Virus record (IMG/VR): IMGVR_UViG_3300011906_000002
Coordinates: 124,001 to 188,000 of that record
Source: an uncultured virus (IMG/VR IMGVR_UViG_3300011906_000002)
Taxonomy: Duplodnaviria; Heunggongvirae; Uroviricota; Caudoviricetes
Strand: one strand, 5' to 3'
Length of the DNA: 64,000 nt
The notes beneath the pieces were generated by a model. The model ran no database searches. It worked only from the letters and a program-made list of their open reading frames with translations, and was not told the origin of the DNA. Each line of letters starts with the position of its first letter. The first letter of the stretch is position 1. Below are positions 9,812 through 55,385 of the stretch, piece after piece. Position numbers and translations under genes: made by a program.

Positions 9812-10262
9812 AGGTTTTGGTGGGGTTGGAGCCTAGAGCGATACCTTTTCCTGGTCGCTCTACCAGCCCACCATTTTAAATAAGGGGCTTTGTATAAGGG
9901 TCTTGATTATCGGTGGTATGGGTGCATTGGTGTTGGCGCACTTATTGAATCATGGAATCCCGGCGGGGGTTGAAGTTCAGGGTGTGGATGCCGGCTACTA
10001 TACTACCGCCGACGGCTGGTCGCAGCAGGCTTACGCTTTGCGGACATTCGAACACGAGGAGGCCACACGAGAAGGAATTGATTTCCTCCGTGCACGCGCA
10101 GCTTACGGGTTCGGACTGTCTGGGAGTTGGCCTAGGCGACACTACATTGCAGGGGCGTCGAGCCACACCCATAGGGCGGGTGTAAGGTTCAGACGTCTCC
10201 TATTTCTCATTAACCGTTCATGTGAGTCTTAAAGGAATCTTTTTCTTTCTGCTTCTCTACAT

Positions 10263-10697
10263 GCTGGCCCTTTGCTATGAATGGCAACTGTGGCTGGCGC
10301 TGGCGGTCAACGGAGCGTCTATCTTAGAACTTAGACTGAGGGTAAGTCCGCACCCTGAGAGTTTGCGGCATAAAACCTTCCCCGTGTTCGCAGGGCCCAG
10401 GACCCTGTCTTAAGATAGAAGCGCCTATTGACGCGCTATATATATGAACCGATTAAGTTCGGCATTAAGGGTTTGCCAACCCAGCAGTCGTTAATAGTAA
10501 CACACCTAGGACGAACGGCCTCTATCAGCTGTCCACCCCCCTAGGGTTTGCTTGATAGCTTCAAAAGCAGTAAAGAACACCCCCCTCGGCCGCAGCCCAG
10601 GCATCGTACAATGGTCACTTCCCATGGCGGGAGTTGGTGACGCGGAGTCGATTAGACCTGACTCGAGTCGAGACGGGGGCGTTTCCTACTTATGCCG
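10263..10697 (+). ncRNA. Putative large structured non-coding RNA (about 435 nt)
   Basis: Many nested helices, e.g. TCTATCTTA 10318-26/TAAGATAGA 10411-19 and CCCCC-CTCGGC 10580-90/GTCGAG-GGGGG 10667-79; G-U pairs favour the + strand; no credible ORF. Confidence 0.55.
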
Positions 10698-10698
10698 T

Positions 10699-11310
10699 CT
10701 AATTGATTTTGCCTCGTCTTACAAATTTCAGCAGCTTAGAGCGTACCAGGTCGTAAGGCCGAATGGTGCTACCTATTCTGCCTTTAAGGAGTTCTATGCC
10801 GCCAAAGCGCAGGACCTCAACGATGAACTCAGAACAGATAGAGATCTGACCATCGGTTGAGGAGAAGATGTTCTTACGAAAGATGGCGTTAAAGAGTCCC
10901 AAGTGGTTGTAACGAGTCTGGTCAGGGTTTGCAGCCAGAAACTCCACGCGCTCCTTGATTTGATCGAACGCTGCGTCTGTTACTTTTAACTCGTAAAGCG
11001 AATAAAATGAACCGAACAGATTTGCGCGGTCTTCCACCATGAAACCACCCTTAACGGAACTGATGCCGTTGTTAAGCGCGTAGGTATAGATGGGGTCGTC
11101 GAAACTGTCGGTGAGCATCAAGGATACGTGGTTATACGGATCGCCTGTGATCAGTCGGCTGACTTTGCTAAACTGGGTCTTGGTGTCTGTTAGCAATACG
11201 TAGATTGATTTGGCGTCGCGGTTCTTAGCCGCATTGACCAACTCTATGCCCTCTTCACTGTAGACCAGGCCCAGACCTGGCTCAATGAGGGCAGATAACT
11301 TCGCCGCCAT
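10699..11310 (-). CDS. Permuted papain-like (NlpC/P60, YiiX/YebB-type) amidase
   Basis: PYNHVSL (His) precedes SICSEFIVEVL (Cys); RYNHLGL and IRPYDL motifs. Confidence 0.75.
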   Translation of the reverse strand: MAAKLSALIEPGLGLVYSEEGIELVNAAKNRDAKSIYVLLTDTKTQFSKVSRLITGDPYNHVSLMLTDSFDDPIYTYALNNGISSVKGGFMVEDRANLFGSFYSLYELKVTDAAFDQIKERVEFLAANPDQTRYNHLGLFNAIFRKNIFSSTDGQISICSEFIVEVLRFGGIELLKGRIGSTIRPYDLVRSKLLKFVRRGKIN

Positions 11311-11367
11311 GGAGTGACGCTCCTGTAGTGGGTGAGTAGAAGTGATAAACTTAAAGAAGTAGCCAAC

Positions 11368-11745
11368 ATGAAATCTTACAAGGTTGTAGTACCTTTAGTG
11401 ATCTACCTCATCATAGCAGTAGGGATGCTGGGGATATATAAATGGGTAGGCGATCGCACTACCTACATGATCGCGATGGCATGGACTTTCTATGCAGGCT
11501 TTAGGGCGTTATATCTAACGGTGTTGGGGGGAAAAGCCGCTGAGCAGATGTTGGTTGGAAATTATAATCAACAAAGCTTAGTGTTCATGACCATTGTGGT
11601 GGGTGTCATCCCTTTCCTGTTCCTAGGATGGATGGGTCCTCTGGCGTTCGGGTGCGTAAGCTTTGCATTCGAATACCAATCCTACCTGATTATCCGGAAA
11701 TATACGTGGAGTAAAAACCATGGTAGACATTACCATCAACGCTGA
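11368..11745 (+). CDS. Membrane protein (about 4 TM helices)
   Basis: Four hydrophobic stretches. Confidence 0.7.
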   Translation: MKSYKVVVPLVIYLIIAVGMLGIYKWVGDRTTYMIAMAWTFYAGFRALYLTVLGGKAAEQMLVGNYNQQSLVFMTIVVGVIPFLFLGWMGPLAFGCVSFAFEYQSYLIIRKYTWSKNHGRHYHQR

Positions 11746-12142
11746 CCACTCGTTTGTTAAGTTGAACAACGGCAACACCATCGAGCACGATGAAGAAGGG
11801 ACTGTGTTCATTCGCAACATCTCCCCACAAACTGACGACCCTGCCCGTACCCATACCCACTACGCTAACATCCAGTGCCTGGCTAACGAAGGGGCGCAGA
11901 TGATCGAGCTGATTCGACAGGGTATTGAGACCGGTCATTGGGAAGGGCGTTCACGCCATGCGTTGGTACGTTCCGGTACACCGGGGTGCTACCGTTACTT
12001 CCCTGTCCCTCTGCTCTTTGAGAAGGATGAGACTATTCGCAAGTCCAGCCAAGAAGCCGGACAGCACACCCACCCAGACGGTTGGTACAAGTATCGCCGT
12101 AACTTGGTGTCGCAACTCGTTGGCCTACCTCAGATACCTTGA
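11720..12142 (+). CDS. Hypothetical protein
   Basis: 140-aa ORF, GGAG RBS, followed by a terminator. Confidence 0.8.
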   Translation: MVDITINADHSFVKLNNGNTIEHDEEGTVFIRNISPQTDDPARTHTHYANIQCLANEGAQMIELIRQGIETGHWEGRSRHALVRSGTPGCYRYFPVPLLFEKDETIRKSSQEAGQHTHPDGWYKYRRNLVSQLVGLPQIP

Positions 12143-12158
12143 GGTGGGGCTTTACTTT

Positions 12159-12184
12159 AGGAGGCTTCGGCCTCCTTTTTTTTT
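12159..12184 (+). terminator. Intrinsic terminator
   Basis: AGGAGGC-TTCG-GCCTCCT plus T tract. Confidence 0.9.
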
Positions 12185-12207
12185 CGCTGGGGTTTACACT
12201 ATAATAT

Positions 12208-12651
12208 GCGATTTAGTGTCACTGGTAAAAAATCCGTTGCTTTCACGGTCAATGGATTAACACCGATGTCGGTCTGTTGAGCATTGTCTATGGCAGTGCA
12301 CTGGTTGTCCAGATAGCTGAGTTATGGGTCTCGGTGAAAGAGTAGTCAGATTCGTATTGAGGTGACCCGGATTCTGCCACCGTTCATTTGTTTGTTTGCG
12401 CACGGTGGAGCGAGCAGAATTATTACATTCCGTAGGTCGGGGTAGCGGTTTAACAGTGGACAGGAGCGGTCGGATTGTGCTCTGGCGTGGCAACGACTCG
12501 GGAACGGCACCACGCCGTACAGAGAGTGCCGCTGGTGGGCATCGGAGTTGCTAAAGGGGAAACCTCGGTGCGTCACCAGGATGGTTGCCCTGTCCCTTTC
12601 CACCCTGGGGGTGGGGTGTAGAAGGAGGACTTCGGTCCTCCTTCTATGCCG
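12208..12651 (+). ncRNA. Putative large structured non-coding RNA (about 440 nt)
   Basis: Follows a terminator; TATG at 12205-08; at least 9 helices with + strand G-U pairs; ends in a 12-bp UUCG hairpin plus TATGCCG; no credible ORF. Confidence 0.65.
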
Positions 12652-12773
12652 CCATTCAACCATAGTTCTAAAAACGCATAGGAAGCTCGTGACAAGGTTT
12701 TCGTCTGTTAAACAATACCTACCCGCGTATTTTATAGAGAGCTTGTCTGGCGCATCCTAAGATGTTTCAGACC

Positions 12774-12790
12774 TATATCATCTTAGTGAA
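12774..12790 (+). promoter_or_regulatory. Early promoter variant
   Basis: TTTCAGACC-TATATCATCTTAGTGAA. Confidence 0.6.
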
Positions 12791-12822
12791 GTGGTAGACC
12801 CCTTTAAAGAAAGGATTAAACT

Positions 12823-13344
12823 GTGAAATATGTCATACCCACCCGTGATTGGGTTGAGTTCCTTAAAATGCGTTTGACTGACATCATCAGTGAAGGTCAG
12901 ATCCCGAAAGAAGAACTGCGTTTTAGTGACTCTGTTTGTATCCACGTGGTGCGGCATCTTCTGATCATGCGCCTGCGCGACATGATGTTTTGGTTCCATG
13001 ATGAACTGGAACTGAAGCTGGCTGACCCCACGGATTTGCTGATGACCATGGTAGTGGAAGAAGAAGAAGGTTTGATCGCCAGGATCTTCCCAGCCTTTGT
13101 CAATGTAGTGGGTGAAACACGCAATGTTAACTCAGTACTTGAGACCTGGGGCGACCTTTTGGAAGACGAGGTAATCGATCCACTGGACCGGTGCATCTTG
13201 GACTACCTGACTACCACGCTGTCAATCGAACCGACCTGGGACCATTGTACAGTTAAACAATTGGGCAACAGCTACATTATCACTCGCGGGGAAGACTACC
13301 GTGCATTATTCTGGGACAAGTACCGAAACACCGTCAAGCCCTAG
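12823..13344 (+). CDS. Hypothetical protein
   Basis: 173-aa ORF, AAGGA RBS, first gene of a tightly coupled operon. Confidence 0.8.
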   Translation: MKYVIPTRDWVEFLKMRLTDIISEGQIPKEELRFSDSVCIHVVRHLLIMRLRDMMFWFHDELELKLADPTDLLMTMVVEEEEGLIARIFPAFVNVVGETRNVNSVLETWGDLLEDEVIDPLDRCILDYLTTTLSIEPTWDHCTVKQLGNSYIITRGEDYRALFWDKYRNTVKP

Positions 13345-13801
13345 ACGGGTGGTGGTGGAAACCTCACGGGTGTTGGGGTTCATGGAAACAGCGCTAAACG
13401 ATCACTTCGGTGCAGCAGCTCAGTATCTGAACCTACAGTCGATCCTCTACCAACTGGTGGAGAACCGTATTAGTGGGAATGTGATGGCCTCGTGTGAGGT
13501 GATCAAGAAACTAATTGGTGAATACGGGTTGGATGAAACCTTGTTGGACGAGGTCTTTGACGCAGTGCGCGATCAGATGAACCAAGTCTTTAACCTGTCC
13601 TTCCCTTATGACATCAGCGAGTACGTGTGTAACTTCCGTTTGATTAGCCGAGGTGATACCTTGGTTGAAATCTTGCGTGAGCATGACGAACCGAGTGCAG
13701 TGCATTTGGAAGATCGTGTCCACGAATACTTAGAAGAAGCAGACGAGAACTTCGACTACGTCCCCGAACGTGTACGCCGAGCCTTGGAAGCAATGCGATG
13801 A
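13301..13801 (+). CDS. Hypothetical protein (start uncertain)
   Basis: 166-aa acidic ORF overlapping both neighbours. Confidence 0.75.
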   Translation: MHYSGTSTETPSSPRRVVVETSRVLGFMETALNDHFGAAAQYLNLQSILYQLVENRISGNVMASCEVIKKLIGEYGLDETLLDEVFDAVRDQMNQVFNLSFPYDISEYVCNFRLISRGDTLVEILREHDEPSAVHLEDRVHEYLEEADENFDYVPERVRRALEAMR

Positions 13802-14169
13802 GCCCTGTGGTGGTACTGGCCCTCCCGACCAGTGAACTGCCACAGGCTTCCCCTAAACTACTGACGTACCTTTGTGAGTCGTCAGAAAGCTTGCGTTGGT
13901 TGGCTGTAGAGATACTCGGTAATCGAGGCGATGGTCATCATCAAGAAGACCTGTTTTACGAACGGGTGTTAGGCGATGAAGGGGTGCAGTATACAGAGAC
14001 TGTCACCATGTTGCATCAAGACTACCTCGATTACCTGAACTCAGTTGAACAGGTGTTGTTCCAGTACCTAGGAAAGCACCTTAGTAATTGCTGGTTTAGG
14101 AGTGTCGCACAATCACACGCAGTCCTTGTTGTGGAATGTCATTATGATCCTATTGATCCCCCTGAATGA
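13798..14169 (+). CDS. Hypothetical protein
   Basis: ATGA overlap coupling. Confidence 0.75.
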   Translation: MSPVVVLALPTSELPQASPKLLTYLCESSESLRWLAVEILGNRGDGHHQEDLFYERVLGDEGVQYTETVTMLHQDYLDYLNSVEQVLFQYLGKHLSNCWFRSVAQSHAVLVVECHYDPIDPPE

Positions 14170-14560: not shown

Positions 14561-14598
14561 GGGGCTCCGGCCCTCTAGTATGCCGGAGATTTTTACTA

Positions 14599-15015: not shown

Positions 15016-15388
15016 GGACATCGCAGACGCTTTGCGCCTGGTGGCGTCTCATCTGGATCAGCATGACTCCGTTGATGCGCCTTGCTTAAGCCTGGCAGTT
15101 AAACGGCTGTTAAGTTACATCATCCAATCCATCTACGAAGCCATTGACCCATTTGATGAACCGGTCATGGCAGGTGAGGTGGAACAGTTTGACGCGGAGC
15201 TGCTCGATCAAGTGATCTTGCATGTCCAACGTTTAGCCGAAGACCCGCTGCTCAAACCCCTGTTGCTTCAGGGTAAGATCCGCGACATCACTTTCCTTAA
15301 TGATGAAGGCATGGTCCTTATCGAACTGGAGTCCAAATACCATGGCCACGCAAGATCAATTCCCACTCTCAAAGCAAGTTTCTTTTGA
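14984..15388 (+). CDS. Hypothetical protein
   Basis: AAGG RBS, ATG 14984. Confidence 0.75.
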   Translation: MKLINVSTTSEDIADALRLVASHLDQHDSVDAPCLSLAVKRLLSYIIQSIYEAIDPFDEPVMAGEVEQFDAELLDQVILHVQRLAEDPLLKPLLLQGKIRDITFLNDEGMVLIELESKYHGHARSIPTLKASFF

Positions 15389-16531: not shown

Positions 16532-18703
16532 GTGAATAATTCATTCTTAAAACCCGCCAACCATTACAGCCGTGATCTGGATGTGCTGGGTAACTATCGT
16601 AACGATATGGCCCTGTATTTGTCCAAGCGCACAGGTAAGCCGTTGGAACAATGTCAAGCCTGGGTTCAACAAGTCACCTCCGCCGGTGGTCGTTTGGAAA
16701 TCAAAGACCCCGAAGTCCTGCACCTGGCCCGTAACAAGTCAGGGGATCGGGAACAAAAGGTGTTAACCTACACCGAGTATCTCAATAACATCAAAGACCG
16801 TAAACTGTTGTTCTCCCCAGCGATGACCGTTTACGAGAACCCTAACCGTCGTGAGTCCCTGCTCTCTATCTACGTTACCGGTAACATTGAGGGGCGTGCT
16901 AAGGTGAAAGCCGAAGCCTTTGATGCCCAGATGGCGGGTAACCACGTCGTAGCCGACATTAAAGAGAACGAGCAGTCCACGTACAAGATTGCCAATAACT
17001 CGATCTCAGGCGGCCAAGCGTCAGCGTCTACGATCTTCTACAACAAGTCTGCACACTCCAGCCTGACTTCCACCTGCCGTGTAGCAACCAGTTATGGAAA
17101 CTCGAACAACGAGAAGTTCCTCGCAGGTAACCGACACTACTGGGCACCGGATGTGGTATTGGCGAATATCACCTCGATCATCGGACACGTTGACTACAAC
17201 ATGATCGGCAAAGCTGTCCAGACCTACAACCTACACATCCCAACTGTGGATGAAGTGATGGAGGTGATTCTTTATAGTACCCACCACTACTGGCGCAATA
17301 AGGGAAAGGAAGGAGAGATCCGTAAACTGGTTGAAGGCCTGGAGCCCTTGGAACGTGTAGCCTTTGTGTATGTCGGCGATATGTGGCACTTGGGCAAATA
17401 CAACACAGGGTTCGTTCGTACCTTCTTGCAGGTTCTGTCTAGCAAGACTGCAGGGCAGACCTTGGCGTATGAGGATGCTAAGGTCTACGTTAAAGGGATG
17501 GATAACGACCTTAAAGCGTACGTGAGCTTGATCTGTGCACAAGAGTTGGCAGGCCGTACCCTGAAGAAGCTTCAAGAATCGGCAGACAAAGGAGAAGCGG
17601 AAGCCATTCACGGTATGCGGGTCATGGGTGAGTTTGCCAAGAAGACCATCGAGACACTGGAGCAGTTCGCCTTGTTGATCGAAGCCTTCTGGGTAACCGA
17701 CAACGTTCCGGCCTCTGTAGCTCGTATTCGTAACTCGGTGCGTCACGTTGCGATCACCTCCGACACTGACTCAACGATCTTTACTGTTGAGAATTGGGTG
17801 GAGTGGTACCAAGGTAAGGTGGACTTTAGCGATGAAGCCTTTGCTATCAACTACACAATGGTGTACCTGGCGTCCCAATCGATCATCCACGTCTTGGCTA
17901 AACTCTCAACAATCCTTGGGGTAATTCCTGAGAAGTTGAACGTGTTGGCGATGAAGAACGAGTTCGCCTTCTCAGTGTTTGGTTTGACGTCAATGGCCAA
18001 GCACTACTTTGCCTACAAGGCTGCTCGTGAAGGTAACGTCTTTAAGCACCTGGAGGAAGAAATCAAAGGGGTGTACCTGAAGGACTCCAACTGTCCGCCT
18101 GAGATTATGGCGGTGGTGACTGAGACCATTAAGGAAGTTATGGATACGGTGATTGCGGATAAGCAAATCTCCATGGTCGATCTGTACCGTAAGATCGCAG
18201 CCATCGAGTTTGACATCATTGAGTCGGTGATCAAAGGGCGGTCTCGCTATTTGGCCCGTGCTTCTGTGAAGTCAGCTAACTCCTACACCAACCCCCATCA
18301 GTCCCCGTATCAGCACTACGTGTATTGGCAGGATATCTTTGCACCTGAGTATGGTGATGCCCCTGAAGCCCCTTACGCGGCTATCAAGGTATCGCTTGAC
18401 CTTCCGAACAAGACGGCCATTGCAGAATGGATCGCCAGCATTGAAAACCCGGAAGTGGCAGCTAAGGTTGCAAAGTACTTTGCCAACAAGCCTGGGATGA
18501 CCACCTTACTGCTGCCGAAGGATAACGTGGAACGCCACGGACTCCCGAAAGAAGTGGTTCAAGCGATGAACATCCGCAAGCTTGTGTATTCGACGGTTCG
18601 GCCGTTCTATCTCATCCTTGAAGCCCTTGGCATTTTCTTGGTGAATGGTAACAACACCAAGCTGGTCAGTGACTTCGTGAGGGAATGGGAAACAGCGGCA
18701 TAA
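16532..18703 (+). CDS. Split family-B DNA polymerase, palm/thumb subunit (phiKZ gp50-like)
   Basis: Q..YKIANNS.SG (motif B), SDTDS (motif C), KGVYLK. Confidence 0.85.
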   Translation: MNNSFLKPANHYSRDLDVLGNYRNDMALYLSKRTGKPLEQCQAWVQQVTSAGGRLEIKDPEVLHLARNKSGDREQKVLTYTEYLNNIKDRKLLFSPAMTVYENPNRRESLLSIYVTGNIEGRAKVKAEAFDAQMAGNHVVADIKENEQSTYKIANNSISGGQASASTIFYNKSAHSSLTSTCRVATSYGNSNNEKFLAGNRHYWAPDVVLANITSIIGHVDYNMIGKAVQTYNLHIPTVDEVMEVILYSTHHYWRNKGKEGEIRKLVEGLEPLERVAFVYVGDMWHLGKYNTGFVRTFLQVLSSKTAGQTLAYEDAKVYVKGMDNDLKAYVSLICAQELAGRTLKKLQESADKGEAEAIHGMRVMGEFAKKTIETLEQFALLIEAFWVTDNVPASVARIRNSVRHVAITSDTDSTIFTVENWVEWYQGKVDFSDEAFAINYTMVYLASQSIIHVLAKLSTILGVIPEKLNVLAMKNEFAFSVFGLTSMAKHYFAYKAAREGNVFKHLEEEIKGVYLKDSNCPPEIMAVVTETIKEVMDTVIADKQISMVDLYRKIAAIEFDIIESVIKGRSRYLARASVKSANSYTNPHQSPYQHYVYWQDIFAPEYGDAPEAPYAAIKVSLDLPNKTAIAEWIASIENPEVAAKVAKYFANKPGMTTLLLPKDNVERHGLPKEVVQAMNIRKLVYSTVRPFYLILEALGIFLVNGNNTKLVSDFVREWETAA

Positions 18704-20401: not shown

Positions 20402-20457
20402 TACTCACCTCGAGTGGGTTGTTTGCGCAAACAAACGTTAACGAAGGAAATAAACTC

Positions 20458-22464
20458 ATGAGTGTTAATAAAGACAGCGGTAAGTCCAGCGGTTCTCTGG
20501 CCGACGCCATGCGTCAAGCCGGCCTCGGCGCCCAAGACCAGCAGCAGGCTGCCCCTGCTCTGCAACCTCAATCAACCCCAACACCCGAAACCAACCTGGG
20601 TGGGAGCCCTAACATGAACACCAACCCCAACGCTCGTGTAGGTCAGCCTGGCCGTTCCATCATGAACGTCAACAGCCAGCACCGTGGTCTGGTTTCCCGC
20701 AACATGAGCGGTGAGACCGTCCAGAAGATCCATGACGGCCTCATGGAGCGCGCTAAGCGCGTGATGGATGCCAAGACCCTCGAAGCCTTCCGCTTCCTGG
20801 TTCTGGACAGCAATCAGCTGCAGGTCAACTACAGCTCGATCCTGGTGTGCATGAAAGAAGTCCATCAGGGCCAAACCCACATCGGCGTCTACGATCTGCT
20901 GATCGAAGGTTCCGGTCGTCCGCTACAGCCGAACATCGCCACCATCGATGGCCACACCATCGAAACGATCTTCGCTGCCAGCGACATCTACAACCACAAG
21001 TCCCACTGGGACACCGTGAAGAAGTTCGTAGTGGACACCTTCGGCGTTAACGCCCAGGTACACGACGCCGGCTGCACCGTGATCCCGACTGAGCTGGACA
21101 AGGACATCCCGGTCGAGCGTTTCCAAGACTGGCTGCACAACAGCGTTCAGGCTGTGTGGGCGGTTCTGGATATCAAGTTGGGCGCTGAAGCTCCTGCATT
21201 CACTCTGGCCGAGTTCGGCGAGAAGGACGTCCTGACTGCTCGTTCCGAGTACGGCAGTGTCCACGGCACCAACATTGTTGGCCTGCCGGTGCGTGAAGAC
21301 ATCGAGCTGACTGTTTCGGCCAGCAACAACGCCGAGACTCAGGGTCTGGACATGCGTCCTCCGCGTGAACTGACTCGCGTCACTGGTTACGTCGACATCA
21401 TGTACAACCCGGTGCAGGTGCAACAGCAGCAGCAGTTCGGGATGTTCGGCATGCAGCAACAGCCGATGATGCCGGGCATCATGTATCAGCCGCGTCTGGT
21501 ACTGACCAACGTCGAGTCGATGACTGACGTCGTGAGCATGGAGCTTCAGCTTCTGGCTCTGTCGACTGCTGTTCAGCTCGGCCGTAACGGCAACTGGTGG
21601 AATGCGTTCCGTCGTCCGCTGAAGACCTACAGCGAAGGTGCCAATGCTCGCAAGGGCATCAACCTGCGTGACGTAGGTGCGATTGGTTACGAGATCAAGG
21701 ACCCGGCCAACCCTGGCCAGCCTGGCAACAAGATCGACACCAGCGCTGCCAACTTCGGCGATCAGCAGTTTGCACAGATGATGGGCATGTTCTTCAGCCA
21801 GCAGCTGCTGTACACGCTGGACATCGAAGAAGCGGGCGAACTGAGCTGGTTGCAGCAGACGTTCATCGCTGCGGCGAACAAGAACGAAGACGCGCGTAAG
21901 AGCATCCTGCTGGCGGCCAACCGCCTGACGCTGGGTCGCTTCGAGAAGCACTTCCCGTTCGATGCGCCGGTCTGCTTCGACGACCAAGACCGTATCCACC
22001 TCGGGTACTACACCAACAGCGACGGTCACCTGCGTGACCTGCGTGAGCTGGACTACCTCGCCATCCTGAACCTGGCTGGCAAGGACGATCCGACTCTGTT
22101 GGAGAAGTGGGAGCGTACTCACCTCGATCGCAGCATCCCGCTGTCCGTGCGTCTGCATGAGCGTAAGACCATCATCGACCGCCTGCTGTCGGGCTCCGTT
22201 GTGGTCAAGGGCTTCGCACGTCGCGTCACTTTCTCCGAGCAGTTCATCAAGGCTCTGAGCGACTCGATCGAAGAAGCCGGCCTGTCCGTCCGTCCGGGCA
22301 ACATGGTCGACAGCTTCAACCAGGGCGCCACTCGTGGCGGCTACTCCTTCCAGGGTCAGCTGGTCAATCCTGGTCTGGGTAACTGGATGTCGAGCGGTGC
22401 GATCCAGCCGAACTACGGGAACCGTTTCGGTAACCAGCAGTTCAACGGCGTGTGGGGTCGCTAA
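20458..22464 (+). CDS. chmA: Chimallin, major nuclear shell protein
   Basis: About 668 aa, strongly biased codon usage, immediately upstream of the gp55-like RNAP subunit; GLPVREDI, RIHLGYY, LRDLRELDYLA.LN motifs; AAGGA RBS at ATG 20458. Confidence 0.9.
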   Translation: MSVNKDSGKSSGSLADAMRQAGLGAQDQQQAAPALQPQSTPTPETNLGGSPNMNTNPNARVGQPGRSIMNVNSQHRGLVSRNMSGETVQKIHDGLMERAKRVMDAKTLEAFRFLVLDSNQLQVNYSSILVCMKEVHQGQTHIGVYDLLIEGSGRPLQPNIATIDGHTIETIFAASDIYNHKSHWDTVKKFVVDTFGVNAQVHDAGCTVIPTELDKDIPVERFQDWLHNSVQAVWAVLDIKLGAEAPAFTLAEFGEKDVLTARSEYGSVHGTNIVGLPVREDIELTVSASNNAETQGLDMRPPRELTRVTGYVDIMYNPVQVQQQQQFGMFGMQQQPMMPGIMYQPRLVLTNVESMTDVVSMELQLLALSTAVQLGRNGNWWNAFRRPLKTYSEGANARKGINLRDVGAIGYEIKDPANPGQPGNKIDTSAANFGDQQFAQMMGMFFSQQLLYTLDIEEAGELSWLQQTFIAAANKNEDARKSILLAANRLTLGRFEKHFPFDAPVCFDDQDRIHLGYYTNSDGHLRDLRELDYLAILNLAGKDDPTLLEKWERTHLDRSIPLSVRLHERKTIIDRLLSGSVVVKGFARRVTFSEQFIKALSDSIEEAGLSVRPGNMVDSFNQGATRGGYSFQGQLVNPGLGNWMSSGAIQPNYGNRFGNQQFNGVWGR

Positions 22465-28772: not shown

Positions 28773-29537
28773 ATGGCTGGTAACAACAACTTTCGTCCGG
28801 CACCGCGTAAGAAAAACGCCCTGGATGAGTACAAGCTTCGACTGAACGGTCCTGTGTTGGCCGATCAAGGCGCGAAGTTTCCAGGTGCGCTTGCTGTAAG
28901 CGTGGTTAAGAACCAGATTCATCTGGATGTCTACACCAACGTCCCGAACGACAAGAACAACGGCAACATTCGTGCAGCCATGGATCAGATCACCTTTGGT
29001 GCGTTCCTGGAACTGTTTGATGCCGTTCTCAAGTCGCCGGCGGACACTGCGTACAAGATCACCAACAAGAACCACACCTTCTTCGAAGGCAAGCGTTCTG
29101 AAGAACCTCGTCTGGTGTCGACCACCATTCTGGGTCGCGACAAAGAAGGCGTGATGTTCATCGCGCTGGTGGCTAAGGATCGTCCTTACCTGAAGTTCGA
29201 CTTCCTGGGTACGAGCTACCATGCCATCATGGGTCCGGATGGTAACCCACTGTCCAAGGCTGAAGCGTCCAACTTCTTCGCTCGTGGCTGGCGTCGGACC
29301 ATCACCGGTCTGGTGGCTGCGGTAGCGACTGCTGAATACGTTGCACCGGAACCGAAGAACAAAGACGGTGGCGGTAACAGCGGCGGTGGTTACAACGGCG
29401 GTGGTAACCGCAATGGTGGCGGTAACAGTAACGGTGGCGGCGGCTATAATGGCGGCGGCAACCGTAGCGGCGGTGGTGGTGGTGCTCCAAGCGGCGGTAA
29501 CGGTGACTGGGGTAACGACGACGATTACAACATGTAA
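28773..29537 (+). CDS. chmC: Probable ChmC, nucleus-associated RNA-binding protein
   Basis: Directly upstream of the gp68-like subunit; globular N-terminus plus G/N-rich disordered tail ending DDDYNM; assignment by synteny and architecture. Confidence 0.6.
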   Translation: MAGNNNFRPAPRKKNALDEYKLRLNGPVLADQGAKFPGALAVSVVKNQIHLDVYTNVPNDKNNGNIRAAMDQITFGAFLELFDAVLKSPADTAYKITNKNHTFFEGKRSEEPRLVSTTILGRDKEGVMFIALVAKDRPYLKFDFLGTSYHAIMGPDGNPLSKAEASNFFARGWRRTITGLVAAVATAEYVAPEPKNKDGGGNSGGGYNGGGNRNGGGNSNGGGGYNGGGNRSGGGGGAPSGGNGDWGNDDDYNM

Positions 29538-47794: not shown

Positions 47795-48550
47795 ATGATC
47801 AAACTCGCACTTGAAACTCTGTTCAGCCAAGCCCTGGTCTATGACCGCAACCCACACGATCCGCGTGAAATCTCCGCCGACCGCAAACCGTTGAAATTCA
47901 CCCACTGTCTGGTTGACGAAGACGGTGCTGAGATGCTGTACAACGAGAAGACCGGTACCTTGCACTGCGAGTTGTTGCGCTCGGATATCGATCCCCGCTA
48001 TCCAGAACTCAGTCACTCGTTCAGCGTCGTCCCAGTAGTGCGCGGTAACGTGTTGGCCCGTGGTCTACACGGCTGGTTGTTTAATCAAGGTGCTCGTGCA
48101 TTTCGATTGGACTATTCGGTACCACGTGTGCAGTTCTACTTTAACGACCTCTTGGAAGAGATCAAGAAAGACCGCTCCATGGTAGAAGGTGTCAAGCTGA
48201 TTGTGCGAGCGGGCGAGAAAGCCGAACAGGTGTTTTACGTCTATGAGAACTACGAAGTGCGTGAGGTGTTGTATAACCCCGTCACTGATGAGTTTGCACC
48301 GAACATGGAAGGTGAAGCCGTCGTCTTCGCAGGTCCCGACGCCGAACAGAACTACACACGCTTTGCCCAGAAGCTTTCAAAAGGTCGGTTGAACTTTTAC
48401 GGGCGGGATACCTTTGCCCCACAGGTAGCGTCTGCTGATACAGCCGACTACATCATCCGTCCTAACGATGGCAAGAGTGCCAATCCCTCCGCCTCTAATC
48501 CATTCCCACACCTTGCTGATGCCACCAAGGCGCCAACCGATCAGTCATAA
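47795..48550 (+). CDS. Hypothetical protein
   Basis: GAGG RBS, 251 aa. Confidence 0.8.
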   Translation: MIKLALETLFSQALVYDRNPHDPREISADRKPLKFTHCLVDEDGAEMLYNEKTGTLHCELLRSDIDPRYPELSHSFSVVPVVRGNVLARGLHGWLFNQGARAFRLDYSVPRVQFYFNDLLEEIKKDRSMVEGVKLIVRAGEKAEQVFYVYENYEVREVLYNPVTDEFAPNMEGEAVVFAGPDAEQNYTRFAQKLSKGRLNFYGRDTFAPQVASADTADYIIRPNDGKSANPSASNPFPHLADATKAPTDQS

Positions 48551-48781
48551 GCAGCATAAAGCCCCTACCCGAAGGTAGGGGCTTTAGAGGCTGAAGTCAT
48601 GGCTGTTTCACAACAGTCACTATACAGGCGCTGGTACCGGACTGGTTGGTGCCTCTCGGCAGGACTCAGACCCCTCAGTGGATCACCTCCTCGTGAGCAA
48701 TGAATGTTCATTGCCTGTAGTCATAGTAATATCGTACTTTTTTGAACTATCTCTTGAATGAACTTAAACTAAGGATGTCGC

Positions 48782-49210
48782 ATGCATTTCCCGACTAATC
48801 TGTTGACGGCATTGGGTTTTATGGAACCTAAGCCTGAACGCCCTCTCGTCTTTATGCGTGCAGGTTACACCAAAGATTCTCGTGTCCGTCGAGTGAAGCC
48901 CGATGGTAGCAACGCATACTCGATACGTGCCTACCTTAAGAACCCGAACGATGCAGGCTCAGTAGCCCGTCGGGTCTTTCGTCAAGCGATTATCTTGCGG
49001 GCGATCAATGGTCAGCTACGACATTACCCCCTGTGGTTATTGTTCTCCACTCCCGAGGTGCGTGAACAATCGGCAATCAAACATAACCAACAACCGCCTA
49101 CCGAAGCCTGGGTTAGAGCCAAACGCAAACAGGTTGGTCATTTTCTAAAAGTGCAACCTAACATTAAACTTCTGGAGCAGACGGACAGTCTAGCCCAACC
49201 TAAAGATTAG
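48782..49210 (+). CDS. Hypothetical basic protein
   Basis: TAAGGA RBS. Confidence 0.75.
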   Translation: MHFPTNLLTALGFMEPKPERPLVFMRAGYTKDSRVRRVKPDGSNAYSIRAYLKNPNDAGSVARRVFRQAIILRAINGQLRHYPLWLLFSTPEVREQSAIKHNQQPPTEAWVRAKRKQVGHFLKVQPNIKLLEQTDSLAQPKD

Positions 49211-49218
49211 GAGCTTAC

Positions 49219-50223: not shown

Positions 50224-50274
50224 TCGCACCACCCCTCTTCGGAGGGGTACCCCTTTATTCTTAGGAGAGTAAAC

Positions 50275-50514: not shown

Positions 50515-50575
50515 CCCAGAGGGCCCTCCATTTATGAGGGGTACTCCTGCCCTGTAATCCTAAGGAGGATACACC

Positions 50576-51403: not shown

Positions 51404-51431
51404 CCCCATGTAGTTCTAAGGAGAACCTGTC

Positions 51432-51749: not shown

Positions 51750-51808
51750 TAAAGGGGTCCGAAGACCCCCTTTCTTATTTTATGCTGATTTTAGAAGGGC
51801 TTAAACTC

Positions 51809-52810
51809 ATGATGGTATCTCACCCCTCCGAATCGCTGATGACGTGGTTCAAGACCCAACAGATGCTCACCCCTGAACTTGGGGACTTGGACTTGCGTCC
51901 TTGTCGCGTGAGTACCTTTCGACATGCCCACGAGATCACTTTCACCGACCATCCTCGGTACGGTAATCCCATGATTCTCTCATGCTTCGAGTCTAAGATT
52001 GCGGCCTTTAACGAACCCACTTTACATGACGTCGATGATCCCTTGCGAGAACTGGCTGTGGTACACGCCTACAACATGGTGCAGATGTTTGAAGATTTGG
52101 TGGATACGGCAATAAAGCATCACCCCCAACATGCCAGCTTCTTTAAGCAACACATCAACATGGTGATTGAGGCAGCGGTGGAAGTGTCGGTACTCAGTGC
52201 CGATCGCAACCACTTAACCCTTCTGGCATGGTATCAAGGTGAACGGGGTCTTATACCTACCACCCACACCTACGACTTGGACCGACTGCGGTGTCAAGAA
52301 AACCTTTACATCCGTAAAATGAATCCACCCAAACCAGAGGATGAACTCGATCCCTCCGAGGAAATGAAAGCAGGTCTGGTGAAACTGTTACAGACTAAGT
52401 TTTCAAACCGTAGAACATTGCCTCACATCTCTTTACTGGCCTTTTGTGCACGCATGTTGGGTTACTCGCCACCCGCTCGCGCACGTGAACTCACCACGGT
52501 CTTTGAGGATGAAACATTTAAGGTCGACTACCCAGAAAAAGGTGTGGCAATTCACTTCAACCTGTTGGATTGGATTGACCCCTCTCACACCGGTAACTAC
52601 GATACCTTAAAGTCCTACCAAGACTTGGATGATGCACTTACCCAGAAGGGCAAACAAGACCACGATAAAGTCTGGCACTTCTTGAGGCTACCTACACGCT
52701 TTAATGACAAGCCCTCCAAGCGTGCTTTGGCTTACGAAGTAAAGCCCGACATGGCGGTGTTTTACCACCGTATGGGTAGTCATTACCTAGCCATCACCTT
52801 ACACTACTAA
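51809..52810 (+). CDS. Hypothetical protein
   Basis: About 333-aa ORF following a hairpin. Confidence 0.75.
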   Translation: MMVSHPSESLMTWFKTQQMLTPELGDLDLRPCRVSTFRHAHEITFTDHPRYGNPMILSCFESKIAAFNEPTLHDVDDPLRELAVVHAYNMVQMFEDLVDTAIKHHPQHASFFKQHINMVIEAAVEVSVLSADRNHLTLLAWYQGERGLIPTTHTYDLDRLRCQENLYIRKMNPPKPEDELDPSEEMKAGLVKLLQTKFSNRRTLPHISLLAFCARMLGYSPPARARELTTVFEDETFKVDYPEKGVAIHFNLLDWIDPSHTGNYDTLKSYQDLDDALTQKGKQDHDKVWHFLRLPTRFNDKPSKRALAYEVKPDMAVFYHRMGSHYLAITLHY

Positions 52811-52919
52811 GGCAAACCTCACTCCCCTCCCGAGAAATGGTATGACCCAAGGCACTCAGTCACTTCGGTGGCTGGGTGTTAAAGGCTTTACTGTTTCTTT
52901 TTTTTTGGTGAGGTGGAGT

Positions 52920-53375
52920 ATGCGTTCTCTTTTCATGTGTGTAGTCTTTTTCTGTACGCTGATACTCCCAGCTCCTACGTGGGCTGTTGAGGTCATTCGA
53001 ATGCCTTCTGCTAATGTCGTTGAAGTATACGACGGCGACACCTTCAAAGTTCAACTGCCTGGGATGTTGGAGGTCTTCGGTCGTGACTTGTCTGTGCGTA
53101 TCAATGGGATTGATACCCCAGAGATTCGCAGCAGTTGTAGTACTGATGTTCTAAGGGCTGCTGAACGCCACAAGGGAGGTCTGGCCAAAGACTTCTTGTT
53201 AGGAGCAATCAAGGGTGGTCAAAAGGTTGAACTCCATAACCTGGCGCGGGATAAGTACTTCCGACTGCTGGCCGATGTTTATATCGATGACATTAATATC
53301 GGTACCACGATGATAGAGCGCGGTCACGCTGTAGCCTATGACGGGGGTGCCAAATACGACTGGTGTGGGAAGTAA
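52920..53375 (+). CDS. Thermonuclease (SNase-like) with signal peptide
   Basis: VYDGDT, VRINGIDTPE, DKYFRLLA.VY; N-terminal hydrophobic signal ending AWA-like (TWA). Confidence 0.9.
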   Translation: MRSLFMCVVFFCTLILPAPTWAVEVIRMPSANVVEVYDGDTFKVQLPGMLEVFGRDLSVRINGIDTPEIRSSCSTDVLRAAERHKGGLAKDFLLGAIKGGQKVELHNLARDKYFRLLADVYIDDINIGTTMIERGHAVAYDGGAKYDWCGK

Positions 53376-53429
53376 CGGCATAAAAGGCGGTAGGGGCGCC
53401 CGCAGGAGCCCCTACTCTTGAAAAACCTT

Positions 53430-55124
53430 TTATGCTGCGTCTGGGTGGTCCGTAAGGAACTCTGCCAGCATCCGATCAAAGCTCGGGGCTTTCATGATAT
53501 CTACCGCAATTTCTACCGCGTTAACGTGTCCGCCTGTCAGGTTAATGCCAGCCATCCGCACTTGGTATTCATTGCACCCCTTGATCTTGAAGATCTCATA
53601 CAGAGTGGTTTCACGGGAGATGTTCAGAATCACCTGAACGTTTGGATAGGTCGATACGATGTCCAAGTCTGCAACATGTCGACGCAGATACGTCCTGATG
53701 TCAGGCAGCTCTTTAATCGCACGCACCCCGTTGTCCACAGTCTGGTGAGACGGTAGGGTGACAATCCATTGGTTCATTCCCACGACATACGCATCGAGTT
53801 CATGGACCATTTCGTTACTACAGGACCCTAGGATGAAGCCTCGTTCACGACAGAAGAAGTAGAAGTCATCCACCAACCGACGTGGTTGCGAGTTATAGAT
53901 GGTGTACTCAGAAGCCCGTGACTGCGTGCTGATTACCAACTGCAAGTCTTTAGTCTTCTCATCGAGCAACTCTACACCGATACAGTCGAAGATGTTGTAC
54001 ACCGCGTACTCGATCTTGTAATTGGACTGCATGAACACGTGCCATTCGAGCCCTGAGTACATGTCCGCTTCGGTGAACTTGAGTTTACCAAGACCTGACA
54101 GCTCCTCCTTCATCACAAAGTCCAAGCTGTAGGACGGTAGGTTTTGCTTAGCCATCCGAATTCGCTTGTAGACGCACATGCTGTCGATCAAGAAGAAAGT
54201 CGCAGGACACTCAGCAACGTGCCAACGTTCGGCAGGGTGAATCGAATCAATCCGACCCGAGGCAGTCTTCTTAGTCGCATTGCCTTGCTTGTAACGGAAG
54301 AACTTGTAACGCTCAGGTACAGACGGGTCACTGAACACTTGAGCAGGATCAATCCCTTCTTTCTCAAGCACCTTGACACACTTGGGAATATCGAAGTCGA
54401 TGTTCCAGATCGTGACGAACTCAGGCTTCCATTCGTGGGCTTTCTGGAAACAACGGATTACCCCTTGACCGGGAGTATCCACAATCTCTAGGGTGTAATG
54501 GATGTTGCGCTCTTCGGTGTACTTGCTTAAGTGCTTGTTGACCGCAACTTGTAGCTTTTCAATGAAGCGAACGTCTTGTCCCACGTAGAACTTGGTCGCA
54601 CACATGTAGACCTGGTCTTTAAACGTCAGGGCCATCAAGATAGGCTCTTCAGTCCCATGAACCACGTCCGTCTCGATGTCGAACACCGCTACGCCATTGG
54701 GTGACAAGCAATCTGGGGAACGCTGCTGATACTCACGCTTGAGCAACGTCGGAGTGGTGATGTCGCACCCGTACAGATACGGATCACGTGCAATCTGACG
54801 CAAACCGCCACGCAAGGTACCGACACCCTTAGCCCGCGCAATCTGACGCAGCAGGTTACGTTGCGTGCAGGTGTACTTTTGCAGGTTTTTAATCTTTTCT
54901 TGAGTTTTCTTTTCTTTGTAGTTGCGCTGACCTTCTCGAGCATAGAAAAAGTCACGCTTATAATTCTCGATGATCTTTAAGTTCGGGATCAACTGACCGT
55001 CTTTGGTATGGATAACTTCTTTGACAATGAGGGCATCGCCATCACCGTCATCATTGGGCAACGTGTAGACAGCATGTTTGCACTCAATGCCTTTAATATT
55101 TTCATTCGCAACTGGCAGTGCCAT
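53430..55124 (-). CDS. Split family-B DNA polymerase, exonuclease plus motif-A subunit (gp82-like)
   Basis: FDIETD (ExoI), WNIDFD (ExoII), YNIFD (ExoIII), DLDIVSTYP (motif A). Confidence 0.88.
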   Translation of the reverse strand: MALPVANENIKGIECKHAVYTLPNDDGDGDALIVKEVIHTKDGQLIPNLKIIENYKRDFFYAREGQRNYKEKKTQEKIKNLQKYTCTQRNLLRQIARAKGVGTLRGGLRQIARDPYLYGCDITTPTLLKREYQQRSPDCLSPNGVAVFDIETDVVHGTEEPILMALTFKDQVYMCATKFYVGQDVRFIEKLQVAVNKHLSKYTEERNIHYTLEIVDTPGQGVIRCFQKAHEWKPEFVTIWNIDFDIPKCVKVLEKEGIDPAQVFSDPSVPERYKFFRYKQGNATKKTASGRIDSIHPAERWHVAECPATFFLIDSMCVYKRIRMAKQNLPSYSLDFVMKEELSGLGKLKFTEADMYSGLEWHVFMQSNYKIEYAVYNIFDCIGVELLDEKTKDLQLVISTQSRASEYTIYNSQPRRLVDDFYFFCRERGFILGSCSNEMVHELDAYVVGMNQWIVTLPSHQTVDNGVRAIKELPDIRTYLRRHVADLDIVSTYPNVQVILNISRETTLYEIFKIKGCNEYQVRMAGINLTGGHVNAVEIAVDIMKAPSFDRMLAEFLTDHPDAA

Positions 55125-55218
55125 GGCTGACTTCCTTTACTAGCGCTTAAGACATAACATCGTCTCGTTTGTCAATTTTAACAGGACAGTAAATAACTAC
55201 TTTCCTGACCTTATGTAT

Positions 55219-55385
55219 GAGAGGTATTTAGCCCAGTATCTCTCAGGGAAGGTTCATCAGGACCTTGCGACATGTTTTAGGTATCCCCCAACCTGGATGG
55301 TGTGGTAGGGTCGATATCTGTTGTGCCTTTCCGTTTCCTCCTACCCCCTCCAGCCCTTCGGGGCTGGAGTCGGGTTCTTATGCCC
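55219..55385 (+). ncRNA. Putative small structured RNA (about 165 nt)
   Basis: TATGTATG start, five tandem hairpins, last one with UUCG loop, followed by TTATGCC. Confidence 0.45.

Follow-up and report, generated by a model that had tools for sequence, protein, structure and literature searches.

What do the long gaps between genes hold in the genome of a nucleus-forming phage? We addressed this question in a window of 64,000 nucleotides (the whole stretch of DNA analysed here), part of the 223-kb genome of an uncultured chimallivirus. A sequence-only reading of this window had proposed that nearly every long gap is filled with stacked helices, and that these form one set of structured noncoding RNAs tied to the phage nucleus. 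The identification of the phage as nucleus-forming was borne out by its genes for PhuZ, ChmA and split RNA polymerases, as was that of a probable ChmC homologue at 28773, the ORF 28773-29537 matching PhiPA3 gene 061 (E 5e-10), which PMC11077065 describes as ChmC. As to the gaps themselves, we see about an even chance that they hold separate noncoding elements, namely leader RNAs that lie next to promoters and stop at terminators, together with a single RNA standing by itself.

A simple map of ORFs contains all four gaps named in that reading, but they are not nearly all of the long ones: a genome-wide list holds 25 gaps of at least 180 nt, and further gaps within the window, absent from the earlier account, lie at 4031-4520, 13802-14101 and 15016-15299. 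The sequencing runs that hold the relatives used for comparison are assembled contigs, in which coding and noncoding parts are covered alike at a depth of ~5, and covariation within the window's clade draws on three lineages only. The first gap (9818-10697) did not hold up as noncoding throughout, since half of this largest gap is a protein gene, ORF A; its noncoding status stands only for 10233-10698.

9650..9811, + strand: small conserved protein gene, 53 aa, stopping just before the first gap
9812..9902, + strand: conserved long hairpin (9818-9873) with a T-rich tail, between the 53-aa gene and ORF A; probably a terminator/promoter spacer
9903..10232, + strand: ORF A, protein gene of 109 aa with a TTG start, conserved and with a coding pattern
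10233..10698, tentatively + strand: RNA1 region, noncoding, 466 nt, meeting the gene 10699-11310 (- strand) at a convergent junction
10425..10600, tentatively + strand: ultra-conserved core of RNA1, with the promoter-like box TTGACGCGCTATATATATG (10428-10446) at its start
10690..10698, + strand: terminator-motif tail of RNA1, TTATGCCGT, after a long irregular hairpin at ~10580-10680

Coding potential was judged from the synonymous share of differing codons, which is 0.61-0.75 in well-conserved genes and 0.34-0.39 in two faster-evolving ones. This share is 0.61 in frame for the 53-aa gene (0.10 and 0.07 out of frame) and 0.39 for ORF A (0.19 and 0.09). ORF A is open in all five genomes compared, with an in-frame 3-nt indel and third-position periodicity, and has a homologous ORF in the sister clade; searches against Pfam and PHROGs returned no match for it. 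The hairpin spacer is conserved as well, 9800-9899 having a mean identity of 93% to four relative contigs and a fold z-score of -2.3. By the same measure, no coding signal was seen in any frame of the RNA1 region (0.20/0.25/0.15 and 0.18/0.21/0.11), which carries 1- and 2-nt indels; its frame 10222-10413 is open yet unlike coding sequence. The core of RNA1 is 92-98% identical over three lineages whose overall divergence is 21% (phuZ is ~90% conserved), and the box that opens it resembles the one before RNA2, reading TATAATG rather than TATG in lineage L005. Because RNA1 ends at a convergent junction with no gene downstream, it would either be an RNA in its own right or extend ORF A by a long 3' tail.

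The second gap gave the clearest evidence for an RNA.

12160..12184, + strand: intrinsic terminator (hairpin plus T9) of the gene 11720-12142, retained by relatives and by the sister clade
12193..12208, + strand: AT-rich promoter-like box, TTTACACTATAATATG, in which CTATARTATGCGAT is invariant in 5/5 sequences
12208..12650, + strand: RNA2, structured noncoding RNA of ~440 nt, between the promoter-like box and a terminator
12356..12451, + strand: RNA2 core, three-way junction of 96 nt, with GUGACCCG before and AUUACAUUCCGUAGGUCGGGGUAGCGG after a variable closing helix whose hairpin loop is U-rich
12453..12616, + strand: RNA2 3' domain
12621..12653, + strand: phiKZ-type terminator closing RNA2, made up of a hairpin of 10 bp and TTCG loop followed by TATGCCGCC

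Judging by the box, RNA2 would start at the G of its TATG. Across the 153 predicted pairs of RNA2, 96.1% of cells are paired and 29 pairs have changed on both sides, a count reached by none of 500 shuffles (slid controls gave 2-6); helices 12-16, in the 3' domain, carry 16 of the 29, and compensated changes are also present in the terminator stem. The alifold energy favours the + strand (-271.9 forward, -215.6 reverse), no frame has a coding signal (synonymous share 0.20/0.17/0.22), and RNA2 has no match in Rfam even at E up to 10, nor any tRNA signal. These data bear on whether the gaps are missed or decayed protein genes (10222-10413, or the minus frame 12346-12663) or what remains of a tRNA cluster since lost. 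The frame 10222-10413 is indeed open in 5/5 genomes, including one 15-nt in-frame insertion, and would give a membrane-helix-like product of 63 aa, while no tRNA remains in the window's clade (0 in 223 kb, as against 4-13 at the same place in the sister clade). However, its synonymous shares and those of RNA2 are as given above, that of the minus frame is 0.09, substitutions lack 3-base periodicity, no tRNA or other Rfam signal was found, and decay would not keep 96% pairing with 29 compensated pairs; we regard such an origin as highly improbable.

The RNA2 core represents a new RNA family, of which it is the conserved part, and has no Rfam match. A model built from seven sister-clade sequences only (R2) finds the window's core at 42.7 bits (E 2.7e-7) and that of a third clade at ~5e-4, and in the cross-clade alignment, which was fitted to this model, 17 of 31 pairs have changed on both sides. 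The closing helix forms in 13/13 single-sequence folds. In the sister clade the layout of RNA2 is alike, with the core heading a tRNA cluster; in the third clade the core is followed by a hairpin plus TTATTTTT and then a gene. In 16 chimallivirus records more remote than these the core motif was lacking, and the 3' domain (model R1) had no counterpart in nine sister- and third-clade loci searched, being seen in the window's clade only.

Further downstream lie the two remaining elements.

48586..48781, + strand: E3, ultra-conserved leader before gene 48782, containing GGATCACCTCCT at 48680-48691
55216..55385, + strand: E4, structured leader RNA of ~170 nt, with start box TATGTATG, conserved 5' hairpin, variable middle and terminator
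55386..55447, + strand: near-invariant short 5' UTR of the gene with ATG at 55448, 3' of the E4 terminator

Compensated changes are found in 15 of the 56 pairs of E4. Its + strand is favoured both by the G-U cells (37 vs 9) and by the alifold energy (-95.6 forward, -69.8 reverse), and the terminator hairpin at 55348-55369 is followed by TTATGCC at 55378-55384. At least two gaps (12208-12650 and 55216-55385) thus hold what had been proposed, conserved and covarying + strand RNA structures between promoter-like and terminator signals. The general claim of stacked helices fared less evenly. By energy alone only E4 stands out, with a fold z-score of -6.9 (-1.35 on the - strand); RNA1 (-2.6) and RNA2 (-2.5) fall inside the range of 30 coding windows (mean -1.06, sd 1.49, minimum -5.25), folds of larger stretches gave -3.40 and -4.31 (20 shuffles each), and E3 scored +0.9. 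The real support for structure is the covariation in RNA2 (29/153 pairs) and E4 (15/56 pairs), E3 having 2-3 covarying pairs and thus no usable covariation. E3 also lacks a terminator and is ~97% identical in three lineages, even though its upstream gene has been replaced and its downstream gene is only 67-84% identical.

This near-invariance of E3 (48586-48781) and of the RNA1 core (10425-10600), above that of neighbouring genes and with covariation almost absent, raises the possibility that the two act as DNA: as an origin, as a site of packaging or partition, or as densely arrayed protein-binding sites. Their folding has no strand preference (RNA1 alifold -146.2 forward and -157.1 reverse, with five compensated pairs on each strand in the window's clade), E3 folds no better than shuffled sequence, and a weak maximum of cumulative GC skew lies ~4-6 kb beyond RNA1 and RNA2. 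Against this, the skew signal is shallow and broad, reading the sequence disclosed no iteron array or long AT-rich tract (two-copy short repeats only), E3 occupies just the position at which one expects a promoter and 5' UTR, and the sister-clade stretch at the RNA1 position has 33 compensated pairs with G-U cells favouring the + strand (154 vs 93), which fits an RNA. We therefore consider a role as DNA improbable.

The elements might also be stand-alone trans-acting regulatory or sponge RNAs, in which conserved stretches of single-stranded, pyrimidine-rich sequence would pair with ribosome-binding sites or titrate a host protein that binds U-rich or GGA sequences. A U- or CU-rich loop of 13-20 nt is found in the RNA2 core of 11/11 sequences from the window's and sister clades, the E4 segment CCGTTTCCTCCT is invariant, no gene follows RNA1, and the 12-mer GGATCACCTCCT, which occurs exactly once in the window, inside the invariant block of E3, matches the anti-Shine-Dalgarno 3' end of 16S rRNA. 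This last match was, however, noticed after the fact; a plain U-rich loop is missing from the folded segment of the third clade (111 nt), and since the loop sequence of the core varies between clades, one fixed pairing target is unlikely. On balance, we think it unlikely that the elements act in this way.

The argument for a single system had rested in part on a shared TATG and on a hairpin plus TATGCC. Both are where they had been reported, with TATG at 12205-12208 and 55212-55219 and TATGCC at 10691, 12645 and 55379, but neither is specific to the gaps. TATGCC occurs at 96 sites genome-wide, 58 of which come immediately after a strong hairpin, a placement seen for 26 of 300 positions drawn at random, and such hairpin-TATGCC sites are found at 15/35 convergent, 21/166 tandem and 4/35 divergent junctions. 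As described for phiKZ, late promoters carry TATG with the G as +1 (PMC4666361), and the consensus of the intrinsic terminator ends in TTATKYYGT, with 61 sites reported in that phage by Putzeys et al. 2024 (PMC10914365). The signals common to the gaps, a start box of TATG type and a GC hairpin with TTATGCCGT after it, are those that this phage ordinarily uses to start and stop transcription. The terminators here share with that of phiKZ the GC-rich hairpin and then TTAT-G/T-YY-GT (here a tail of (T)TTATGCCGT/C), as well as the genome-wide use of the motif at gene ends, often bidirectionally; they differ in that their stem sequences are unlike the phiKZ consensus and that the tails of RNA1 and E4 lie ~10 nt past the hairpin, the phiKZ tail following directly (PMC10914365).

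No similarity was seen among the four elements, and their distribution among relatives differs element by element: the RNA2 core is found in three clades and E3 in the window's own clade only, while for RNA1 a 1-kb search gave at best a weak similarity outside the clade (8.7 bits, E 0.077). Together with the generic nature of the motifs, this argues against one linked set, and we find it distinctly improbable that the gaps encode a coordinated, nucleus-tied group of trans-acting RNAs, whether these serve ChmC/ChmA as scaffolds or cargo, are packaged into virions or act as decoys for RNA-binding or immune proteins of the host. Such a role would fit the ChmC relative encoded at 28773-29537 and the position of RNA1 and RNA2, which do lie, as noted previously, less than 2 kb apart between phuZ and the DNA polymerase/chmA block; RNA1, lacking a downstream gene, could act in trans. 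Yet the ChmC of PhiPA3, as described in PMC11077065, showed little specificity among the phage mRNAs to which it bound, for the most part close to start codons.

We accordingly return to separate elements. RNA2, E4 and E3 lie directly upstream of co-directional genes and RNA2 and E4 end in a terminator, so that they look like leader RNAs. Polymerase would start at the TATG-type box, to go by the motifs, and transcribe the folded leader; at the leader's terminator it may either stop, releasing a discrete stable RNA, or read through into the operon, with the fold possibly setting the level of read-through. Sitting less easily with a leader model are the length of RNA2 (440 nt, against <250 nt for the 201phi2-1 leaders) and the lack of its 3' domain in other clades. 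RNA1 cannot be a leader, and E3 has neither terminator nor detectable fold.

Cis-acting leader RNAs that govern termination include riboswitches and processive antiterminators such as the HK022 put RNA. The resemblance here lies in a conserved junction-type fold placed just 3' of a promoter and ahead of a terminator and operon. Any ligand, alternative antiterminator pairing or effect on the polymerase would be hypothetical in the present case. Further differences are that transcription would fall to the phage's own non-canonical multisubunit polymerase, and that the window's terminator lies ~170 nt beyond the RNA2 core. GOLLD and ROOL are large multi-helix noncoding RNAs of phages and prophages, often adjoining tRNA genes and of unknown function (PMC5737381). 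The sister-clade homologue of the RNA2 core likewise heads a tRNA cluster, but there are no tRNAs in the window's own clade, no Rfam model gives a match to RNA2 even at E up to 10, and ROOL averages 581 nt (PMC5737381) against 440 nt for RNA2. Closer in layout are the 5' UTR-derived sRNAs of giant phages, such as sRNA005 of 201phi2-1 and the phiKZ sRNA upstream of gp182; in 201phi2-1, according to PMC11512511, 8/11 sRNAs arise from premature termination in 5' UTRs. Those sRNAs were defined by their transcript ends and are <250 nt, whereas the elements here are known from sequence alone and RNA2, at ~440 nt, has two domains. What the two share is a start and an early terminator upstream of a same-strand gene, which fits E4 and, by layout, RNA2, and a sequence and fold conserved among related jumbo phages (PMC11512511).

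The four intergenic gaps that the sequence-only reading had brought together as a single set of structured non-coding RNA units resolve into four separate elements, RNA1, RNA2, E3 and E4, listed here with the landmark genes of the window.

8236-9207: PhuZ (PHROG profile, E 2.4e-101)
9903-10232: ORF A, a predicted gene in the first gap
10233-10698, strand uncertain: RNA1, with a core at 10425-10600 that starts with the box CTATATATATG, resembling the box ahead of RNA2, and an end formed by a long irregular hairpin plus TTATGCCGT at a convergent junction
12208-12650, plus strand: RNA2, with its core at 12356-12451
20419-22464: nuclear shell protein (PHROG profile, E 2.1e-103)
28773-29537: putative ChmC relative
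48586-48781: E3, the leader before the gene starting at 48782
55216-55385, plus strand: E4, a predicted folded leader in which a TATGTATG box is followed by a conserved hairpin on the 5' side, a variable central part, and the terminator hairpin with TTATGCC

The source record is 223,076 bp long with direct terminal repeats, measured at 99 bp, and the window corresponds to its bases 124001-188000. Since PHROG profiles identify PhuZ and the nuclear shell protein together with two DNA polymerase pieces and several split RNA polymerase beta-type subunits in the window, the phage is an uncultured chimallivirus, and one that is distant from known phages. Searches of phage records for DNA similarity to 9000-13500 using megablast and blastn returned no match; the closest cultured PhuZ proteins are those of Xanthomonas phages LucasX (45% identical) and RTH11 (44%), and the LucasX genome lacks a comparable gap downstream of phuZ. 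Two separate DNA-polymerase-type genes, at 16532-18703 and 53430-55124 on the minus strand (phrog_2927, phrog_3011), lie on opposite strands, 35 kb apart. The probable ChmC homologue that had been proposed at 28773 was borne out, in that ORF 28773-29537 matched 111 phage records by tblastn, including gene 061 of PhiPA3 (29.3% identity, E 5e-10), the product of which, gp61, is ChmC (Chimallin C) in the available text of PMC11077065. By homology this ORF is a ChmC relative, and, as PhiPA3 gene 061 is ChmC, the ChmC part of the earlier premise holds. The cumulative GC skew of the whole genome has a broad, shallow plateau at 140-142 kb (window 16-18 kb), 4-6 kb past RNA1 and RNA2, and the total over the record does not return to zero; GC skew was rejected as an origin marker because its maximum is shallow and lies that far away.

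Relatives of the window's clade were collected through PhuZ-based and motif-based scans, yielding four viral and two metagenome contigs, each of which is about 79% identical to the window over 7.5 kb and which, with the window, represent three lineages. An alignment of more distant PhuZ proteins added seven contigs that make up a sister clade, with PhuZ 57-63% identical, as well as 20 loci that are further removed. A metagenome scan with the neighbouring 203-aa protein gave only two further loci, both from a lineage already sampled, and the intermediate lineages P0002-P0005 (PhuZ 82-89% identical) are present only in Logan/ENA assemblies.

Three of the gaps had been considered related because they share a TATG motif towards the 5' end and a hairpin followed by TATGCC at the 3' end. 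The motifs are indeed present in all three, but they do not constitute a gap-specific signature, as they correspond to ordinary stop marks and putative start marks of the phage. For TATGCC this emerged from a census of every site in the genome, in which the preceding 45 nt were folded and a hairpin of -14 kcal/mol or stronger was counted. The number of sites (96) is about equal to that expected from base composition (109), and a strong hairpin precedes 58 of the 96, compared with 26 of 300 random positions. Hairpin plus TATGCC is found at 15 of 35 convergent gene junctions, compared with 21 of 166 tandem and 4 of 35 divergent ones, and at the convergent pairs 932/972, 34074/34120 and 58345/58389 one hairpin is flanked by TATGCC on both strands. 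In phiKZ, the terminator consensus is a hairpin followed by TTATKYYGT, reported at 61 terminators in the accessible part of PMC10914365. Judged from sequence, the hairpin, the junction preference and the frequent bidirectionality of the motif in this genome all fit an intrinsic terminator of the phiKZ type. The hairpin association, the junction counts and the match to the phiKZ consensus together indicate that TATGCC behaves as a terminator, and hairpin plus TATGCC is the predicted generic terminator of this phage; our initial reading of TATGCC as a promoter was rejected, since the junction counts and the published consensus argue against it. The text available for PMC4666361 describes TATG as the late-promoter core of the phiKZ non-virion polymerase, with the G as the first transcribed base, and as necessary, not sufficient. 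Here a conserved TATG occurs at both 12205-12208 and 55216-55219, and one lineage reads TAATG at RNA1. With TATGCC as predicted terminator and TATG as putative late-promoter core, the features that made the three gaps look related are ordinary punctuation; recognising that such RNA-specific-looking signatures are generic should avoid the naming of false "systems" in other chimallivirus genomes.

In front of RNA2, the gene at 11720-12142 ends in a classical hairpin-T9 terminator, which is followed by the invariant box CTATARTATGCGAT ahead of RNA2, and RNA2 itself ends in a 10-bp hairpin plus TATGCCGCC. RNAalifold predicts 153 pairs, with 96.1% of the cells of a five-sequence alignment paired, and in 29 pairs both sides have changed, a number reached by 0 of 500 shuffles and compared with 2-6 in slid controls. 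The plus strand is favoured (-271.9 versus -215.6 for the reverse), and the G-U pairs of several stems would be A-C on the other strand; no coding-like frame was found on either strand of RNA2. Together these data provide good support for RNA2 as a real, plus-strand structured RNA in a predicted leader position, closed by a predicted terminator. Folding energy as such was set aside as evidence of structure for RNA1, RNA2 and E3, being too weak. Rfam covariance models, those for GOLLD, ROOL, RNase P, tmRNA, 6S, introns, riboswitches and tRNA among them, found nothing at gathering score in the 64-kb window, and at E up to 10 the sole match in 9700-12850 was asX6, with 19 bits against a gathering score of 50.

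Part of RNA2 recurs beyond the window's clade. The layout is similar in the sister clade, where gene 140 precedes a terminator of the same kind, and an AT-rich box then leads to an RNA about 300 nt long; the 30-nt word at the end of this RNA also ends the 5' domain of RNA2. An exact viral scan for this word identified 14 contigs, four from the window's clade, seven from the sister clade, two from a third clade and one, L051, which was rejected as a family member because it looks like a chance hairpin. The word was absent from 16 more distant chimallivirus records when up to three mismatches were allowed. A bacterial scan produced 22 exact matches in 596 Gb; a host origin of the motif was rejected, since the matches are confined to the word itself and our own chance estimate is a few tens. 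In 13 of 13 single-sequence folds a closing helix lies directly after GUGACCCG and directly before the conserved 3' word, and the sequence of this helix differs in each lineage. A covariance model of the core built from the seven sister sequences only (R2) recovered the window's own copy at 12356-12451 (42.7 bits, E 2.7e-7), five relatives from the window's clade with 38-42 bits and two third-clade loci with 28 bits, and nothing in 13 other loci. Across clades, 17 of 31 pairs have changed on both sides, compared with 3-6 in slid controls, in an alignment that is model-fitted and so favours structure somewhat. A common sequence motif, a shared predicted fold and detection with a model from which the window's clade was excluded define the RNA2 core as a new RNA family spanning three clades. 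Outside the window's clade no counterpart was found for the 3' domain of RNA2 (12453-12616), whose covariance model, R1, matched only the window among 10 sources; for this reason the proposal that two sister-clade modules had fused to give RNA2, with this domain as "module B", was dropped.

The surroundings of the core differ between clades. In the sister clade, tRNAs begin 10-20 nt past the RNA2-core homologue, in a cluster of 4-13. At the syntenic point, the same 4-13 tRNAs lie within 5 kb downstream in sister-clade phages where the window's phage has none; ARAGORN found 0 tRNA or tmRNA genes in the window and 0 in the whole 223-kb genome. The whole cluster has been either lost or gained between the window's phage and the sister clade. 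Directly after the RNA2-core homologue, two sister loci (L026:11543-11672 and L031:11575-11701) have, ahead of the tRNA cluster, a tRNA-like gene whose anticodon region carries about 63 nt of inserted sequence. It scores 41.2 and 35.9 bits with the Rfam tRNA model, was not called by ARAGORN, and may represent either a tRNA containing an intron or an element resembling a tRNA. A hydrophobic ORF of about 50-60 aa lies between the RNA core and the first tRNA, some 30 nt after the core, in four of the seven sister loci (L024, L025, L028 and L029), and is absent in L026, L027 and L031. On the third-clade contig G005, a homologue of the 203-aa neighbour gene (447-1013, 53% identity) lies about 42 kb from the copy of the RNA2 core, which implies that the RNA is not tied to that gene. 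The core would form an invariant three-way junction just after the putative promoter and, in the three clades, precede terminators, tRNA clusters or operons.

The first gap, which is flanked by a 53-aa gene ending at 9811 and had been read as RNA throughout 9818-10697, is about half coding. ORF A is open in five of five genomes, with an in-frame 3-nt indel and substitutions mostly at third positions, and the synonymous share of its differing codons is 0.39 in frame versus 0.19 and 0.09 out of frame (for comparison, 0.61-0.75 in well-conserved genes and 0.34 in the gene at 11332-11745). The sister clade encodes a homologue, and by these measures ORF A counts as coding. The frame at 10222-10413 is also open in five of five genomes, with synonymous shares of 0.20, 0.25 and 0.15, and is probably noncoding, with some doubt. 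Across RNA1, RNA2 and the frames 10222-10413 and 12346-12663 (minus strand), the share was 0.09-0.25 in all frames, and we saw neither synonymous excess nor third-position periodicity. With ORF A coding and 10222-10413 showing no coding signal, the noncoding stretch is 10233-10698. Its core is 92-98% identical across three lineages, above phuZ, with 1-nt indels present.

Within the window's clade the strands of RNA1 are indistinguishable because there is too little variation (alifold -146.2 forward versus -157.1 reverse, with five compensated pairs on each strand). A sister-clade stretch of about 600 nt at the same position favours the plus strand (-262.6 versus -235.7 for the reverse, 33 versus 31 compensated pairs and 154 versus 93 G-U cells). 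RNA1 and this stretch have short words in common; nhmmer gave no match between them, and R3, a model of the 3' part of the sister stretch, gave none at default filters. With filters off, R3 gave the window's RNA1 a weak score of 8.7 bits (E 0.077, search space of 1 kb), although both position and strand were as expected. Because synteny and the short words in common are what connects the two, we regard the proposed homology of RNA1 to the sister stretch as tentative. We read RNA1 as an ultra-conserved element that stands alone and whose strand is uncertain.

E3 is likewise ultra-conserved, about 97% identical compared with 67-84% for the downstream gene, and was found only in the window's clade. 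Its fold is no better than shuffled (z +0.9), with almost no covariation, making it an unstructured leader. Similarity to relatives starts exactly at the stop codon of the upstream gene. In the three relatives that retain E3, that gene (47795-48550) has been replaced and its DNA shows no similarity, which suggests a swap of gene cassettes at a fixed boundary. At 48680-48691, inside E3, GGATCACCTCCT occurs once in the window, in an invariant block and predicted hairpin; it is identical to the anti-Shine-Dalgarno 3' end of 16S rRNA, a resemblance noticed post hoc and taken as a lead only. For the two invariant blocks, E3 and the RNA1 core, DNA-level roles are a live alternative to an RNA function.

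E4 lies between divergent genes, and its 3' flank is a near-invariant 60-nt 5' UTR leading up to the ATG at 55448. Its fold lies far beyond shuffles on the plus strand only (z -6.9, versus -1.35 on the minus strand), with 15 of 56 pairs compensated and 37 versus 9 G-U cells in favour of the plus strand. These data support E4 well as a plus-strand structured RNA in a putative leader position, closed by a predicted terminator. The word CCGTTTCCTCCT is invariant at 55331-55342. Elsewhere in the window, the second-best tabulated fold (z -4.9, plus strand) is at 13802-14101, a region covered by ORF 13798-14169. A 490-nt divergent gap at 4031-4520, which the sequence-only reading had not named, has a strong hairpin plus TATGCC at 4078 (plus strand) and a plus-strand fold z of -2.55, and may hold small genes or another leader.

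Part of the stretch was present in 20 of 24 public runs listed, of which we examined four, two metatranscriptomes and two probable DNA runs. These contain assembled contigs of relatives, which cover genes and gaps without distinction; in the two metatranscriptomes the depth is about 5. We infer the start sites, the termination events and every function discussed here. Nucleus-forming jumbo phages rely on unusual polymerases of their own for transcription, and to our knowledge little has been established about control of elongation or termination in them; small RNAs of the leader type have been observed in both phiKZ and 201phi2-1. Terminator-gated leader RNAs would be the most economical mechanism here, and if the RNA2 core governs read-through, it would give direct experimental access to how the non-virion polymerase is regulated. 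Trans-acting roles are a live alternative, under which phages might use the RNA2 core to manipulate host translation or RNA metabolism. Returning to leader RNAs acting in cis, we think it improbable, if worth stating, that the RNA2 core represents a cis-acting RNA of a new class, with the phage's non-canonical multisubunit RNA polymerase as its target. Such an RNA might be a processive antiterminator, allowing the polymerase to read through many strong phiKZ-type terminators, or a ligand- or protein-sensing switch. If either form is true, nucleus-forming phages would gain their first described case of transcription elongation controlled by an RNA.

In 201phi2-1, eight of 11 sRNAs derive from 5' UTRs by premature termination, according to the text available for PMC11512511. 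As far as sequence can tell, E4 has the layout of these sRNAs, and predicted start and termination sites of this type upstream of a same-strand CDS fit both E4 and RNA2; the filter of <250 nt given in the accessible part of that study would pass E4 (~170 nt) and exclude RNA2 (~440 nt). Large phage RNAs that adjoin tRNAs are, in the portion of PMC5737381 at hand, GOLLD and ROOL, a tRNA context that is present for the sister-clade homologue of the RNA2 core and absent in the window's own clade. Given these RNAs, and the ncRNAs already reported for phiKZ-like phages in the available parts of PMC13282480 and PMC11512511, the kind of RNA is known; what is new is the size and the RNA2-core family itself, supported by covariation and provided with a core, boundaries and a working search model, together with a placement rule for it, at the head of tRNA or gene blocks.
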